Shown here: piece after piece, positions 1-7,200 of the stretch
Layout of the letters: every line of letters starts with the position of its first letter
Position numbering within the stretch: the first letter of the stretch is position 1
NCBI GenBank assembly: GCA_965218295.1
Contig: CBDCKN010000012.1
Span: 32,001-96,000 of the forward strand
Length of the DNA stretch: 64,000 bases
Origin: Longimicrobiales bacterium
GTDB taxonomy: Bacteria; Gemmatimonadota; Gemmatimonadetes; Longimicrobiales; Gaopeijiaceae
Direction of reading: 5' to 3'
The notes under the pieces: generated by a model
Databases searched by the model: none
Told to the model about the DNA's origin: nothing
Seen by the model: the letters and a program-made list of their open reading frames with translations, nothing else
Program-made: the position numbers and the translations under genes

Positions 1-1379
1 TCGCCCTTCAAGACTCCTCCCTCGTTTTCCAGCAGTCGCCGGGCCACCTCGCCTACGATGAGGGTCGCGGGCGAGCGGAGCTCCGACGTGCGGATTCTCT
101 CGGCTAGCGTAGCGAGGGTTCCGACGACCATCCGTTCGTCGCTGCGGGAGGCGCGGCTCACGGCCACCGCAGGGGTGTCGGGTGCGCGCCCCTCCGAAGC
201 GAGCCCCTCCAACACGTCTTCGGCCGATGCGAGTCCCATCAACACGATCACGGTTTCCTCTTCGGGAGGAAGCTCACCACGCGTGCGGCCACCGGCGTCG
301 TGCCCGGTTCGCACCGTGAACCCCTTCGCGAGGCCGCGCTGGGTCAGGGGTGTTCCCGCAGCGGCGGGCGCGGCGACCACGGCACTCAAGCCTGGCACAA
401 CCTCCCAGGAGATCCCGGCTGCAGTGAGGGCCTCCACTTCCTCGCCCCCCCGCCCGAAGACGAACGGGTCACCTCCGTGGAGGCGTACCACGCGTCTTCC
501 GGACCTCGCCTCTCGGATCATGAGCGGAACCCTCCGATCCGAGGGTGAGACAACGCGCTGCGACGCCCCCCGCGAGCGGTGCCCTACGTCGACGACCCTC
601 GTTCCTGGAAGCGCGAGCTCCAACACCTCATCCTCCACGAGGGCATCGTGGAGGATGACGTCGGCCCGCTGGATCCGGTCCAGAGCACGCAACGTCAGAA
701 GCTGCCGACTGCCCGGTCCCGCACCCACGATCGCCACGGTCCCCGGGTCGAACGGCTCCTCCTCCTCCCGATATATGGCCTCCAGGCGGCGCGCGGCCGT
801 CTCCGTGTCACCCCGGTCCACCAGCTTGGTGATGGTCGGATCGAAGAGCGCCCTGAGGAGGTGGCCGCGTTGCCTGAGGCCCTTGAGGCCTCGAGAGCGA
901 AGGCGGATGAGTAAGTCCGCCACCGACGTCAGGCTCCGGGGAATGGCCGCCTCCAGCAGTCGGCGAAGCTGCCCCGCCAGGAGCGGCGAGCCGCCGTCGG
1001 TGCTGATGGTCATCACCACAGGACCCCGGCGGACGATGGCCGGCGAGTAGAAGTCGCAGAAGGCCGGGTCATCCGCCGCGTTCACGAGGATGCCCCGAGC
1101 CCGGGCCGCCTCCGCCAGTCGGCGATTCACGGCGGGATCGTCCGTGGCGGCCACCACCACCTTGGCTCCCGAGACATCGTCGTCCCGGACCGGCCGCCGG
1201 TCGAAGCGCCACACCTCGGGCAGCCACGCCCGCATTTCCGGCGACACGCCCGGAGAGACGAGGTGGATCCTGGCGCCCGCGTGGATCAGCGGCACGATCT
1301 TCTCCGCCGCGACCCCGCCGCCCCCGGCCAGGAGGACGCGCTGGCCTTCCAACCCCACGAGCTGAATCGGATATCCCAT
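1..1379 (-). CDS. cysG: Siroheme synthase (precorrin-2 dehydrogenase/ferrochelatase + uroporphyrinogen-III C-methyltransferase); 3' end runs off the window
   Basis: Absent from the ORF track because it has no stop in the window. Manual translation from ATG 1379 gives MGYPIQLVGLEGQRVLLAGGGGVAAEK...VNAADDPAFCDFYSP...VGAGPG...RLHGGDPFVFGRGGEE...VVPGLSA, which are CysG(B) and CysG(A) motifs. Confidence 0.93.
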   Translation of the reverse strand, partial: MGYPIQLVGLEGQRVLLAGGGGVAAEKIVPLIHAGARIHLVSPGVSPEMRAWLPEVWRFDRRPVRDDDVSGAKVVVAATDDPAVNRRLAEAARARGILVNAADDPAFCDFYSPAIVRRGPVVMTISTDGGSPLLAGQLRRLLEAAIPRSLTSVADLLIRLRSRGLKGLRQRGHLLRALFDPTITKLVDRGDTETAARRLEAIYREEEEPFDPGTVAIVGAGPGSRQLLTLRALDRIQRADVILHDALVEDEVLELALPGTRVVDVGHRSRGASQRVVSPSDRRVPLMIREARSGRRVVRLHGGDPFVFGRGGEEVEALTAAGISWEVVPGLSAVVAAPAAAGTPLTQRGLAKGFTVRTGHDAGGRTRGELPPEEETVIVLMGLASAEDVLEGLASEGRAPDTPAVAVSRASRSDERMVVGTLATLAERIRTSELRSPATLIVGEVARRLLENEGGVLKG

Positions 1380-1414
1380 ATGACAGCTCCAAGAGCTCCG
1401 AAGCTTCAGGAACG

Positions 1415-1450
1415 AAAAAAAACCCCGACCTCCTCAGGGAAGCCGGGGTT
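1415..1450 (-). terminator. Intrinsic terminator (attenuator) between the leader peptide and cysG
   Basis: Minus strand CCCCGGCUUCC-CUGA-GGAGGUCGGGG stem-loop followed by 8 U, ending about 35 nt before the cysG ATG. Confidence 0.88.
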
Positions 1451-1470
1451 CGGGAGACTCGCCGCGTCCG

Positions 1471-1554
1471 TTAGGCGCAGCCGGCTCCGGACCCGCCCTC
1501 CCGGGGCAAAGTCATGCGACAACAGCAACAAGCGCAGTGATCAAAGCGACTCAT
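1471..1554 (-). CDS. Cys-rich leader peptide, 27 aa (MSRFDHCACCCCRMTLPREGGSGAGCA)
   Basis: ATG 1554 to TAA 1471. Five Cys codons in a six-codon run. GGAAGGGA upstream as a possible RBS. Followed by the terminator and cysG. Confidence 0.82.
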   Translation of the reverse strand: MSRFDHCACCCCRMTLPREGGSGAGCA

Positions 1555-1610
1555 GTTTGGGATGTTTCCCTTCCGGTCGTACGCCGATACGTACTGAACT
1601 CCACGCTATC

Positions 1611-1640
1611 AGAGTAAAAGGACACCCCCGGCCGAGTCAA
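1611..1640 (-). promoter_or_regulatory. Putative sigma70 promoter of the leader-cysG transcript
   Basis: TTGACT-18 nt-TACTCT on the minus strand, about 55 nt upstream of the leader ATG. Confidence 0.45.
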
Positions 1641-1737
1641 CGCCGCCCGCTCCGGATGGCGGCGGTCTCAATCGTGGAAAGGGTCGAAACGACCCGGGAA
1701 GAGGTGGTGGAGAAGAATGCTTACTGAGGTGACACGT

Positions 1738-1830
1738 ATGACGCGAGCCAGGAAGGCGGTCCGCATGGGACTGATCGTTACGTCCTGGGCATTCGTAGTA
1801 CTCGGCTTCATGCTGATGCACAACGCATGA
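1738..1830 (+). CDS. Putative 30-aa single-TM small protein (MTRARKAVRMGLIVTSWAFVVLGFMLMHNA)
   Basis: GAGGTG RBS upstream of ATG 1738. Basic N-terminus then a hydrophobic helix. Below the ORF-track size cutoff. Confidence 0.45.
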   Translation: MTRARKAVRMGLIVTSWAFVVLGFMLMHNA

Positions 1831-1954
1831 CCACTCGGGTGTCCGCCTGACGGACGCCCTTACACTCTGCCAATATGGCATGCTACGAGCAGATCGGTGG
1901 CCCGAGAGGTAGCCGCCGGGAACTATGTAGGGGCTCGACCCTCAGGGGTGGTTG

Positions 1955-2317
1955 TCATGGGCTGTCAGGCCTGCAGACGCCCCCTGCGAGTCGATCCGTC
2001 TTGGCCGCCGCGATGAAGTCGTTCTGGTGGAGACCGCGAATCTTGTGCGTCCACCAAGTGATCCTCACCCTCCCCCATTCGGTCAGCAAGGCCGGGTGAT
2101 GCCCCTCGGCCTCCGCAAGCTCTCCCACCTTGTTGGTGAACGCGAGGGCTTCGGCGAAGTCGGGAAACGTGAACGTTCTCTCCAGGCGCTGGATCTCTTC
2201 CCGCTCGACGATGCTCCAGTCGGGGATCTGGACGCGAAGCCTTTGTGTCTCCTCGGCTGTGACCCTGGGAGCATCGCGGCGACACGCTTCACACTTCATC
2301 TGAATGAGCTCACCCAC
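1955..2317 (-). CDS. phhB: Pterin-4-alpha-carbinolamine dehydratase
   Basis: [16 protein letters not shown]...[10 protein letters not shown]...[19 protein letters not shown] motifs. GTG 2317 preceded by GGAGG. Confidence 0.9.
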
Positions 2318-2500
2318 TTGCTTGCACCTCCGTCGATCTGTTCCTCTGTCGATCTGTTTCCCTCTGTCGATCTGTCTTACACCGCTCGACTCCACCCGCT
2401 TCCGCCCGTAGAGTGTGGAAACAATCCCTATGCGTTGGATGGCGCAGAGTTGAAGGGTCTTGTGGGTCGCCATCCCCGCGGCGGCTGATGAGCAAGCGAC

Positions 2501-4258
2501 ATGACGGACCAGAAGCGCAGACTAGCGGCAATCCTGAGCGCCGACGTTGTCGGGTATTCCCGGCTGATGGGCGATGACGAGGAAGCGACGATCGAAGTCC
2601 TCGTGGACTGTCGGGATGTGTTCAGCAAGCGTGTAGAGAACCACGACGGCAGGGTGGTCGACACGGCCGGTGACAGTGTTCTCAGCGTCTTCGATAGCGT
2701 GGTCGAGGCCGTCCGCTGTGCGATGGAGATTCAGATCGCGCTGTCTGAGCGGAACGAGGAACTCAGCGAGGATCGCAGAATGCGATTCCGCATCGGCATC
2801 AACCTGGGCGACATCATCGAAAAGGAAGACGGGACGGTCTATGGCGACGGCGTGAACGTCGCTGCTCGAATGGAGGCGTTGGCCGAACCCGGGGGCGTGA
2901 CCCTGTCGGACGACGCATACCGCCAGGTTCGCGCCAAGCTCGAGGTGACGTTCGAGGACATGGGTGATCAGGAGGTCAAGAACATCGCGGAGCGGATCCG
3001 CGCCTTCCGCCTAGTGGACTTCGACCGCACGCGAGCTGGGCCGGTCTCTCAGGCTCGGTTGGAGCTGCCGGACAAGCCGTCGATCGCGGTGCTGCCGTTT
3101 CAGAATCTGAGTGGCGACCCCGAGCAGGAGTACTTCTCGGACGGACTCACCGAGGACATCATCACGGATCTCTCGAAGCTATCCGGCCTATTCGTGATCG
3201 GTCGCAACTCGTCCTTCGCGTACAAGGGGAAGGCGGCGGACCTGACGAGGGTCGGAAGGGAGCTCGGCGTTCACTACGCGCTGGAGGGAAGTGTGCAAAA
3301 GGCCGGCAACCGCGTGCGCATCAACGCCAAGCTCGCCGATACCAGGAGCTCCCGCTATACGTCTGGGCCGAACGGTACGACGGGACCTCCGACGACATCT
3401 TCGCCCTGCAGGACGACATCACGGGAAAGATCGTGTCGGCCCTCTCCGTCCAGCTGACCGCAGCAGAGGAGAAACAGAGGGGAAGCGAGTACACGAGCAG
3501 CGTCGAAGCTTCATGATCTTTTCCTCAGAGCTCGAGTTCTGTACCGTCAACCCAGTCCGGTGACCAACGCCGAGGCACTCGCGATGTTCGATGCGGCCCT
3601 AGCCCTGGATCCAGGCTTCGCGCTGGCCTTGGCGTATCGCAGCTACGTGAAGCTCCATGCGTGGTTATTCGGCTGGAATACCGATCCTGACGCCTTGGAC
3701 TTGGCGATTCGGGACGCCGAAGCTTCCATCGCCCAGGATCCGAACCTGGCCATCGGGCACTCCTTCCTGGGCTGGATGCACATGTGGAAGGACGGGCATC
3801 AGCGCAGCCTCTCCGAACATGAACTGGCGCTAGCTCTCGACCCGAATTCCTCGGATGCCCAACTCTTCTATTCCTCAAGCCTCATCTTCAGCGGGCAGCC
3901 GGAGCTGGCGGAAGCGCCTATGATACATGCGCACCGCCTGGATCCGCACCTCTCGGCTCCGGCCCTGCTCAACTACGTCCACCTGTACCTCCAGACGGGG
4001 CGGTACGCGGAAGCCGAGCGTCATAGGGATGAGCTACTGGAAAAGGCGCCCGACTATCCCGCCGCTCATGTGTACGACGCAATGCTCCGAAACGCTTGCG
4101 GCGACCAGGAGGGCGTCCGGAGGTCCGGGGAAGAGATTGTCAGGTTGATGCCCGGGGCCACTGTGACCGCTCTCAGCCGGCAGTACCCTTACGCCAAGCC
4201 CGAGCAACAGGCCCGATTGCTTGAGGGTCTGCGGGCGGCCGGGCTACCCGAGTCCTAA
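2501..4258 (+). pseudogene. Class III adenylate/guanylate cyclase + TolB-N-like + TPR protein, split by two frameshifts (about 3350 and 3511)
   Basis: [27 protein letters not shown] and PSIAVLPFQNLSGDPEQEYFSDG motifs. WAERYD...DIFALQD lies in a second frame and the TPR region in ORF 3560-4258. The indels may be assembly errors. Confidence 0.85.
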
Positions 4259-4286: not shown

Positions 4287-7200
4287 TTACGCTCCGGAGA
4301 CCACATCCGTCGCCACCCGCACCAGCCCCGGATTCGCCCGGCGCTCCTCCTCGAACATGTTCCGGACGCAGACGGCGAAGTGCTGGCCTCCGGGAGCGGT
4401 CCCCGTGACCGCGAGTGGGATACGGATCTCGTCCCGCCCCTCGAAGTCCACGCTGAATCGCTTCACGAGCCCGCCGCCTCGCATCCAGGAGAGGCAAGCC
4501 GGCAGGTCGACGTGGACGAGGTCTCCGACCCGGTACCCGTCCTCGAGTCCGACCACCAGATCGACGCGCCACCCGGGCTGAAGGAGGCTCGGTCGCCGAT
4601 CCCCGTTCTCACGAAGGCCCACCCGGACCTCGAATCCAGCCCCGTACTCCTCCCAATCCTCCTCCCGAATGGCCAGCACCTGCACGGCGACGGTGCCTTC
4701 GATGGACTCGACCGACTCCGCACGATCTCCGAGGGCGATCGCTTCCCCTAGGTCCATCTCCTCACCGTTCACCCGCAGGCGCGCCTTGCTTGAGATCACG
4801 GACCGGATGCGCAGCTGGATCAGGAGGGCGATGGCCCCCACGGAGTCGACCGTCGAATAGAGGGCCCCGTTCTCCCCGAACTCTCCCACCACGACGTTGG
4901 CAGCCCTCAGCCCCCGGTCCACATCCCCGGCCGCGAGGAGACCCGCGGCGACGTATGCGAGCCCTGCGCGATTCGCCACCGCATGCCCACCACTCCGGAG
5001 GCGCACCTCGTTCCCAGAGAAATCCACGAAACGGTCGATAACGGTAAGCGCGTCTGAGCGATTTCCGCCGCCTACCAGAGCGGCGTAGGCGTCGTCCAGG
5101 GTGGCCGGCTTAGACGGGATCTTCTCGATACCGTGGAACGCGCCGGCGTCGTCCGCCATCTCGCTGCCTCTCTTCACCGCATCCCTGAGACCCGGCGAAA
5201 GGTCAGGGATCTCCGCGAGGCGATCGAGCTTCCATAGGTACCGGGCCGTGAGTTGGCTGTAGTGATCGCTCACCTGGCCGGACTCGGGGTACATGAGGAA
5301 CCCTGCTCCCGGCCGGAACATGCTCTCTTCCCGGGCGATGCCCTTACGGATGATGCCCTCGGCCTTGGACCTCCGCCCGTCGTCTCCGGAGGCGAGATAC
5401 ATCGCTACTGCCGACAGGATCTTGGCGGCTGTCTGCTCGCAGCAAAGGGGAGTATATGTGGCGGTGGTCTCGATCAGGAGGTCGAACGGCTCGTCCAGCC
5501 CGGGGAGGACCCGCAAGCTCACTGCGCCTGCGTCCTCCAGGGTGATGGACTCGCCCTCCGAAAGGAGAACGAGCTCCCGAGCGTGCGACCGGAGGCGGCC
5601 GGGCTCGGAAACCACGGCTTCCATCGAGTCGATCTCGCCCGACTCCGGATCCTCGACGCGTACCTCGTATGCCCCAGGAGCGACAGCGAACGTCAGGGCG
5701 GCCGGAGCCGAGATCTCTCCCTGCACCGTGGCGCCGTCTGCCGATCGAAGCTCGACTGCATCACCGTCACGAGTCAGGCTCACGAGCGCTCGCCCCGACG
5801 CCGTCGTCACACGGAGCCGACCGGTGACATCGTCGCCGGCGCGCACCATGGGTGGAATCTCCAGGTCTGCGCGCACGGGCAGGTCGATGACCAGATCACG
5901 GACTACGGCCCGCCAATCACCGGCATCGTAGGCGAAGGCCTCGATCAGGAAACTTCCCGTTCCGTCGCCCGTCCACACGGGGACCTCTGCGCGGCCCTCG
6001 ACCTCGACGAGGCCGACGAAGAGAACCGGCGGAAACTCGGCACGGGGCGGAGGCGCCTCCGCGTCCACCGGGATTCCCACGTCTTCCGTGTCCACGAACT
6101 CAAGGGCTTCGGCGGCCATTTCCTCGTGGAGCTCGGCCATCCCCCCCGCGGTTGGCTCTACGGCTGCCACGTAGACCACGGCGGGCTCGTCCGCACCCAG
6201 CTCGATCTCCAATCCGTCCTCCAGGTCCAAGAGGACGTCCATCATCTCGCCCTCGAAGATCCCGGATGGCATCGCCGAGGGAAAGAGCTGCTCCTGGAGA
6301 TCCAGCGGCTCGATCCCCCACTCCGCCATCCCCTCCGTGGCGGACTCGACCCCCCGCTTCAGAGAAGCCGCGAGGCCCGACGACGGCGTGTCGGTCCGCG
6401 TCAGGCGGCGATCCCGCACCGTAAGCAGCACCGGAACGGCTCGCTCCGCGTTCGTCTCGATCTCGAGCGTCACTTCCTCCCTGGGCCGGACCGTCTCGGG
6501 CGCCGACACCTCGACCTCCAGACGGCTCGGCCGCATGAAGGTCGTGAAGCCTTCGAAGGGCTTCCCGCCGACGATGCCTGCCGCCACGACCAGCATGAGG
6601 CCGGAAGGGTTGTCGAGAGGAATCGAATCACCGGCGGCGGCGTCGCCGTGCTCGATTACGTGAGCCTCGTCCCCGACGAGGTCGAACACGAGGAGATGGA
6701 GCTGAGAGGTATCCGCATGGACCTCGATCGCGGGCTCCTCGGTGAGAACCGACTCGACGGTGAGTGGAGTGGTGAGCCGATCTCCCTCCGTGAGGTGGCC
6801 ACCCCGCACGGGCATGGAAGAGGGCTCGGGAAGCAGAGAGAACATGAACTCCAACCCGAGCTCGTTGAGGACCGTGAGCTCACGCTCAGCCTGGCGGGTC
6901 CCCGGGATGGACACGGTGGCGATCCGACCGGGATCCGTCTCGACCCGGGCTTCGAGTCGGAAGGGCCCTTCGCCCTCCATCTTGAGGACACCCCGGTACC
7001 GACCTGGCGCTTCCGGACGCAGCACGGCCGAATCGACCGGACGATCGTCATCGAGCAGTGAGACCTCCAGACTCTCACCGCAGGGCTGCTGCCAGCTCTC
7101 CACCGAGAGTGCGAAGGAGAGCTGCCCGGCCTCACGGTCGGCCGCATGCTCGAGCAATCGAGCGCTCAGGGGGGCGAGTGAGAACTCGGCCACCGTGAAT

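Follow-up and report, generated by a model that had tools for sequence, protein, structure and literature searches.

Introduction

Bacterial cysteine genes are mostly known to be controlled by protein regulators or structured RNAs such as CysB, CymR, the T-box (Cys) and the S-box, all of which reach the same physiological output, and the terminator-type attenuators of the textbooks have a gap at cysteine. Classical attenuators include those of E. coli trp and Salmonella his, as presented in the parts of two reports that we draw on (10.1101/834739, PMC4007540). For cysteine, the available text of Canestrari et al. 2020 states that uORF-mediated attenuation had not previously been described (10.1101/834739), and the control shown there for the mycobacterial polycysteine leaderless sORF Ms5788A is translational, acting through occlusion of the Shine-Dalgarno sequence and not through termination, a mode of control echoed in the accessible portion of PMC13236596. 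Cysteine leaders in Actinobacteria were predicted without terminators in the covered part of Seliverstov et al. 2005 (PMC1262725), which agrees with the statement on these leaders in an earlier, sequence-only reading of the DNA studied here. Attenuation leaders have also been predicted upstream of cysS, which codes for cysteinyl-tRNA synthetase, namely uORFC-8-2 of Rhodobacterales, a Cys-Cys leader with a terminator-like stem and U run (Brewer et al. 2021, PMC8632094, in part), and a two-Cys leader in Deinococcus deserti (PMC4007540, in part). The portion of Naville and Gautheret 2010 covered here (PMC2965389) yielded no Cys leader, and we found no terminator-type Cys leader in print on sulfate-assimilation genes, or in Gemmatimonadota or Acidobacteriota, in a search that covered the supplementary candidate lists in part.

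Here, we describe such a leader upstream of cysG in a 64,000-nucleotide stretch of DNA from an uncultured Longimicrobiales bacterium of the Gemmatimonadota, positions 32001-96000 of contig C12 of its genome (G000), which we refer to as the window. Comparative tests and folding with ribosome-masked segments support the proposal of the sequence-only reading that attenuation sensing Cys-tRNA controls a sulfate-assimilation operon, and on this evidence we consider it highly probable that the cysG leader is a classical ribosome-controlled transcription attenuator responding to charged tRNA-Cys.

Results

The cysG locus and its leader

The minus strand of the window between 1640 and 1377 carries, in order, a promoter-like site, a leader ORF, a hairpin followed by U8, a GGAG and the ATG of cysG. 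The features are as follows, with the three alternative helices being predictions from folding.

1635..1640, minus strand: promoter-like -35 hexamer, TTGACT, from the sequence
1611..1616, minus strand: promoter-like -10 hexamer, TACTCT, 18-nt spacer to the -35 hexamer
1471..1554, minus strand: leader ORF, 27 aa, MSRFDHCACCCCRMTLPREGGSGAGCA, Cys at codons 7, 9, 10, 11, 12 and 26
1519..1536, minus strand: control codons, Cys 7, 9, 10, 11 and 12 (five Cys in six codons)
1468..1531, minus strand: predicted protector hairpin (1:2), Cys-codon strand 1531-1504 with 1498-1468, from an RNAalifold consensus
1437..1502, minus strand: predicted antiterminator (2:3), a rod of 25 bp with interruptions at -40.8 kcal/mol, from masked folding
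1481..1488, minus strand: GGAGCCGG, antiterminator strand of the sequence-only reading, inside the rod and pairing mainly with other partners
1415..1450, minus strand: intrinsic terminator (3:4), 11-13 bp hairpin plus U8 (1422-1415)
1387..1390, minus strand: GGAG, likely Shine-Dalgarno site of cysG from the sequence, outside the terminator and antiterminator helices
1..1379, minus strand: cysG, siroheme synthase, 479 aa, start at 1379, continuing 60 nt beyond the window edge

The hexamers at 1640-1635 and 1616-1611, as well as the 27-aa ORF with its five Cys in six codons and the 11-bp hairpin with U8 ahead of the cysG start, are all present as first read from the sequence. The promoter-like site scores 8 of 12 and hence was not called by a consensus promoter scan, and a best-site scan returned a TTG-N16-18-TAnnnT site upstream of 17/17 leaders examined. 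Judged by the position of the hexamers, transcription probably starts near 1604. The leader ATG is 56 nt past the -10 box in the window, and only 3/17 leaders, all in relatives, are near-leaderless with an ATG 6-9 nt past the -10 box, their start sites being deduced from the putative promoters. The Shine-Dalgarno site of the leader ORF itself is weak or distant. Upstream of the promoter-like site lies a pterin-4a-carbinolamine dehydratase gene (window 1955-2293, minus strand), and the DNA between this gene and approximately 1650 varies among close relatives. Further along, the plus strand of the window contains an adenylate/guanylate-cyclase-domain ORF (2501-3457) and a TPR ORF (3560-4258), which resemble pieces of one gene of the cyclase-TolB-TPR type, possibly frameshifted.

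CysG is above the NCBIfam CysG cut-off in a profile search, and 3' of its gene, to the left of the window, are the genes for a 772-aa NIR_SIR reductase, a 204-aa protein and a DUF4202 protein. The sequence-only reading had asked whether cys genes lie to the left of the window; this holds for the reductase, but not for cysH, which is found elsewhere, nor for cysD, for which there is no match in the genome and in place of which a sat-cysC fusion is present. The reductase passes no NCBIfam cut-off and scores highest with NirA; by analogy with relatives in which it is linked to cysH, it is probably specific for sulfite as opposed to nitrite. The genome has one cysH outside the cysG operon, preceded by a Cys leader of its own, and the sat-cysC fusion and two cysteine-synthase-like genes lie elsewhere, so the cysG operon has a pathway to feed. 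A cysteinyl-tRNA synthetase gene was not found in this genome, which is 90.67% complete, and is present in 4/4 relatives; its absence is taken as an assembly gap.

The 204-aa protein (L001:15039-15653, minus strand) belongs to no Pfam or NCBIfam family. Its gene follows that of the reductase in 20/21 loci, with the contig ending first in the remaining one, and in Atlas the protein falls only among unnamed clusters from Myxococcota, Chloroflexota and Acidobacteriota, with recognition just below threshold. Its position is compatible with a possible role as accessory or electron-transfer partner of the reductase. The DUF4202 gene (L001:14383-14994, minus strand) is last in the cysG-reductase operon of cysG-first loci, a placement that hints at some function in the metabolism of sulfur or siroheme.

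Conservation of the leader in Gemmatimonadota

This CysG is encoded in 17/314 genomes of the family, the terminators of which were read by eye, and a Cys leader together with a hairpin and U tract precedes it in 16/17, the contig of the 17th ending 49 nt upstream; the Cys run that the sequence-only reading had proposed to look for in relatives is thus conserved. At the level of the order, the reductase is present in 28/301 genomes, and we examined 21 loci (G005 and 20 others). In 15 of these, the sulfur gene at the front (cysG, cysH or the reductase) is preceded by a Cys leader plus terminator, including one leader with only two Cys, one locus with tandem leaders and two with separate cysH and cysG leaders. 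The other six loci have no Cys leader, and in them the reductase has neither cysG nor cysH before it. Across the phylum, cysH is present in 39/401 genomes, and 25 of the 30 loci examined, our own genome included, have a leader with a terminator; two more have a leader without a scored terminator and three have none, the operon start of two of these being outside the locus. The leader therefore occupies a position that follows whichever sulfur gene comes first. Because related genomes are not independent of one another, these counts overstate conservation.

Several loci differ in detail. In G046, two different Cys leaders, each with a terminator, are arranged in tandem before the reductase (L102, ~6790-6500, minus strand), and two further members of this genus lack a Cys leader before the reductase. 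A more distant cysG (59% identity) in L108 is preceded by a GTG/TTG-started Cys leader without a scored U-tract terminator (4861-4930, plus strand), and this leader may use another mechanism. The upstream region of L097 looked by eye like a SAM riboswitch, a candidate that we dropped because it has no Rfam match.

In order to examine the leader codon by codon, we aligned 15 leaders, 14 of them from genomes and one from a metagenome locus, leaving out the divergent leaders of G242 and G332, the truncated G440, the duplicate L107 and L108. Codon 9 is Cys (UGU) in 15/15 aligned leaders, and codons 11 and 12 are Cys in 14/15. Codons 2-6 vary freely, and codons 17, 18 and 21 keep the same third base although the residues change. 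Fixed Cys codons, a free N-terminus and invariant third positions together indicate selection on Cys decoding and RNA pairing, and not on the peptide. Among the Cys control codons of the alignment there are 42 UGU and 25 UGC, compared with 1093 and 3220 in the long reading frames of the genome; this excess of UGU may reflect protector pairing or slower wobble decoding.

A rival explanation is a ribosome-stalling switch that answers to a broader signal, for example cysteine plus methionine, or arrest by a Cys-rich nascent peptide together with a thiol, an oxidant or a metal. In its favor, residues P17, R18, E19, G20 and G23 after the Cys run are fairly conserved. The available text of Canestrari et al. 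likewise describes conserved non-Cys residues in mycobacterial leaders (10.1101/834739). Moreover, the cysH leaders of another Gemmatimonadota family, f4 (L214, L215, L219, L220, L223, L226, L228, L231, L234 and L236), mostly read CCCM, which suggests joint Cys/Met sensing in that family. In the cysG leaders, however, the Met said by the sequence-only reading to come directly after the Cys run is in fact two codons further on (Cys-Arg-Met), and this Met14 is kept in only 3/15 leaders, so that we rejected Met sensing at codon 14. The conserved residues after the run overlap the antiterminator strand, where third positions stay invariant while residues change, and the Cys run is the only element common to the leaders of cysG, cysH and the acidobacterial reductase. 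A broader signal is therefore improbable in our estimation, and charged tRNA-Cys is the preferred signal.

Folding of the leader RNA

The core of the terminator is an 11-bp helix between 1448-1438 and 1433-1423 with two G-U pairs, and the segment 1450-1421 folds at -22.7 kcal/mol. Over the 15 leaders, 98.5% of the cells of this pairing are paired, with 5 two-sided changes at 3 pairs, a covarying stem of the kind that the sequence-only reading had proposed to look for. In the predicted antiterminator rod, GGGAGG at 1502-1497 contacts CUUCCC at 1442-1437, and 1495-1492 contacts 1444-1447, burying the 5' arm of the terminator. The rod is the minimum-energy fold in 15/15 aligned leaders. In its majority register 87.5% of cells are paired with 5 two-sided changes, a modest level of covariation matched by 9/500 shuffles, for a GGGAGG-type register that was picked after viewing the alignment. 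The protector has 89.2% of cells paired and 16 two-sided changes, matched by 0/500 shuffles, the alignment scored being also the source of the structure. When the window sequence is folded by itself, the protector does not dominate: with no ribosome present, the rod is predicted to form when the RNA is exposed to 1437-1426. As untranslated window RNA would also form the rod transiently, a clear dominance of the protector, the role of which would be to allow termination without translation, is not seen in this leader.

The sequence-only reading had assigned the antiterminator to GGAGCCGG. Its complementarity to the 5' arm of the terminator is real, but it is not the predicted antiterminator, the best-supported strand of which starts with GGGAGG at 1502-1497. 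As the main antiterminator the GGAGCCGG helix was rejected: a forced fold reaches -16.6 kcal/mol, and with a ribosome placed on the Cys codons its probability is 0.00. Its 89.2% paired cells come with one two-sided change, and 158/500 shuffles are as good. With a ribosome at codons 16-20 its modelled probability rises to as much as 0.48, and it could serve there as a fallback pairing.

Masked folding gives the outcome that the attenuation proposal anticipated, a switch that depends on ribosome position. With three footprint sizes and RNA exposed to 1426, the antiterminator has a probability of 0.86-0.96 for an A site at Cys7-12, and from codon 14-16 on the terminator has one of at least 0.96. 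This switch at codon 14-16 takes place only before the 3' arm is fully exposed. When the exposed RNA extends as far as 1423 or further, the terminator wins at equilibrium at any ribosome position; read-through therefore requires that the earlier-forming rod be kinetically trapped during transcription. Of the 15 aligned leaders, 6 show a clean switch, 8 a mixed one and one (G443) none. Pairing of the terminator arm with upstream RNA beats the shuffle mean in 15/15 leaders, with only 2 reaching 1/60 and the window leader standing at 7/60; for most leaders, taken one by one, this pairing lacks significance against shuffles.

Based on these folds, we propose the following sequence of events. When Cys-tRNA is scarce, the ribosome would stall on codons 7-12 and cover region 1, leaving GGGAGG (codons 18-20) free to pair with the 5' arm of the terminator once that arm emerges. 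With the rod formed, RNA polymerase would read into cysG, the reductase and the two further genes. When cysteine is plentiful, the ribosome would pass codon 14-16 and melt or cover the antiterminator strand, and the RNA would end at U8.

Seven RNA runs contained small shares of window 1-2500, and the four that we examined were all assembled contigs. Metatranscriptome contig X4 (depth 2.8, 12 differences) covers 1415-1579 and runs ~15 nt past the U tract; X4, the sole assembled contig over the leader, shows no RNA end at the U tract and no levels. A search of Rfam with window 1200-2000 gave 8 sub-threshold hits only, with no T-box or SAM riboswitch match, and there were 0 hits in 10 related loci.

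Other leaders in the same genome

There are 893 hairpin-plus-U sites genome-wide, and a short ORF in which Cys takes five of six codons lies upstream at two loci only, which are the cysG leader and the cysH leader. Short ORFs that start with ATG and have at least four Cys within six codons number five in the genome, and a terminator follows only those same two. One weaker three-Cys match has a TTG start and no recognised sulfur gene downstream. The cysH leader (L043; G000:C3:419052-418822, minus strand) encodes 23 aa with seven Cys before a stand-alone cysH, and comprises a promoter-like site (TTGACA/TAGTGT) as well as a tandem pair of terminators. Folding puts its predicted switch at its final Cys or shortly past it. 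As in the cysG leader, its terminator also prevails at full exposure, which the His leader described below partly resists. This second, unrelated leader would act on cysH in the same way as the first acts on cysG. With Cys leaders on both the cysG operon and cysH, two steps of sulfate reduction would be tied to cysteine supply.

A His-rich leader with a terminator is located before hisG (L044; G000:C3:474880-475066, plus strand), with seven His in eight codons and a predicted switch two to three codons past the last His. The same switch behavior ahead of hisG suggests that this lineage uses classical attenuation. A Thr-rich candidate at G000:C13:589112 was rejected as it sits inside a long coding frame, and no leader was found in this genome before the likely thrA, sat-cysC or the cysteine-synthase-like gene on C9.

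Acidobacteriota-type loci

We scanned metagenomes and retrieved 80 cysG loci, in 27 of which the operon begins with an acidobacterial-type reductase and the flanking sequence is long enough. A Cys leader plus terminator was detected in 22/27, compared with 0/162 shuffles and 3/122 other ORFs in the same loci, two of these three preceding thrC- and thrB-like genes. Leu passes the same loose test in 13/27 loci, and the specificity of the test is therefore limited to rare residues. Where cysG comes first or a non-sulfur gene lies upstream, 5/21 loci pass. We set aside 16 loci without a usable cysG N-terminal match, 11 with a truncated reductase, one with a short flank and four with another sulfur gene upstream (0/4 passed). 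Several of the acidobacterial-type loci are near-duplicates, and kin among them are not independent. Proteins of four loci carry or cluster with the names Terriglobales, Acidobacteriaceae or Angelobacter, and close relatives of the proteins of a fifth are named Terracidiphilus. Masked folding of six acidobacterial leaders predicted a switch in L112 and L129, a weak one in L169 and L184, and none in L113 and L147.

A second, divergent Cys leader is frequent at these loci (L119, L120, L137, L138, L140, L143, L149 and L177, ~2900-3030, minus strand), and that of L138 precedes a gene with a sub-threshold YeiH-type transporter match. Further divergent Cys leaders are found in L154 (8353, minus strand) before a threonine-synthase-like gene and in L162 (2642, minus strand) before a homoserine kinase gene.

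Two further accounts of the hairpin and the peptide are each less probable again than a broader signal. In one, the ORF would be a stand-alone gene for a tiny Cys-rich, metal-binding peptide with an ordinary terminator, and cysG would be expressed by constant leak-through or from its own promoter. The CXCCCC of the leader resembles metal-binding motifs, and the terminator dominates at equilibrium. Against this, the N-terminus of the peptide is not conserved, and in two phyla unrelated Cys leaders are located at the corresponding place ahead of different sulfur genes. The 32 nt between U8 and the cysG start also leave little room for a promoter downstream of the terminator, an arrangement that the sequence-only reading had recognized would undermine attenuation, and no promoter-like site was called in 1000-2400. 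We hold this account to be very unlikely, and just as unlikely is translational or Rho-dependent control with an incidental hairpin, which is the only poly-Cys mechanism for which we found experimental proof (mycobacterial leaders, in the available text of 10.1101/834739) and would suit a leader such as that of L108, but which stands against a cysG Shine-Dalgarno site (1390-1387) outside all predicted helices and a hairpin and U tract that are conserved and covarying.

Discussion

At the sequence level, the cysG leader has all the elements of a classical attenuator, apart from a protector that clearly dominates. The control codons are those of the end product, in that the Cys run precedes CysG and the NIR_SIR reductase, and cysH lies behind the second leader. 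Taking the loci together, we lean towards the view that Gemmatimonadota and Acidobacteriota have an undescribed sulfur regulon of several loci, made up of cysteine attenuators of the terminator type. Sequence-unrelated leaders would have arisen or been swapped repeatedly before the genes that head sulfur operons (cysG, cysH, the reductase, a YeiH-type transporter and thrB-/thrC-like genes), some in tandem, and the ribosome would be the main cysteine sensor in two phyla abundant in soil and sea. This wider proposal is more likely true than false, and we hold it with distinctly less assurance than attenuation at cysG itself.

If true, a conserved terminator-type Cys leader on sulfate-assimilation genes would fill the cysteine gap among the textbook attenuators, and would reveal how costly sulfate reduction is rationed in phyla that are abundant yet little studied. 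The leader may also be of use as an annotation tag, as it suggests a part in sulfur metabolism for an ambiguous 'nitrite/sulfite reductase', the 204-aa protein and DUF4202.

The mechanism is a textbook one and is known for cysS as a prediction; it is its use on sulfate-assimilation genes that we did not find in print, in the portions of the literature covered. The predicted cysS leaders, uORFC-8-2 and that of D. deserti, resemble the cysG leader as far as their partly covered sources describe them, in that both are Cys-codon leader peptides proposed to act by transcription attenuation. They differ in having two Cys codons, in targeting cysteinyl-tRNA synthetase and not sulfate assimilation, in belonging to other phyla and in being predictions only. 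With the mycobacterial Ms5788A, as presented in the available text, the cysG leader shares a first short ORF that contains a Cys run and lies ahead of cysteine or sulfur genes. Some of the relatives' cysG leaders are near-leaderless as in mycobacteria, whereas the window leader is not leaderless, and unlike Ms5788A the cysG leader has a conserved intrinsic terminator and a free Shine-Dalgarno site. With the trp and his attenuators, in the parts of the reports covered, it has in common a promoter, an ORF with codons for the end product, a protector, an antiterminator, a terminator and biosynthetic genes, in addition to the same predicted logic. It departs from them in that it senses Cys and would control siroheme synthesis together with sulfur reduction, that it extends 15 codons past the control codons, and that its antiterminator is a long rod with the stop codon of the leader in its loop.
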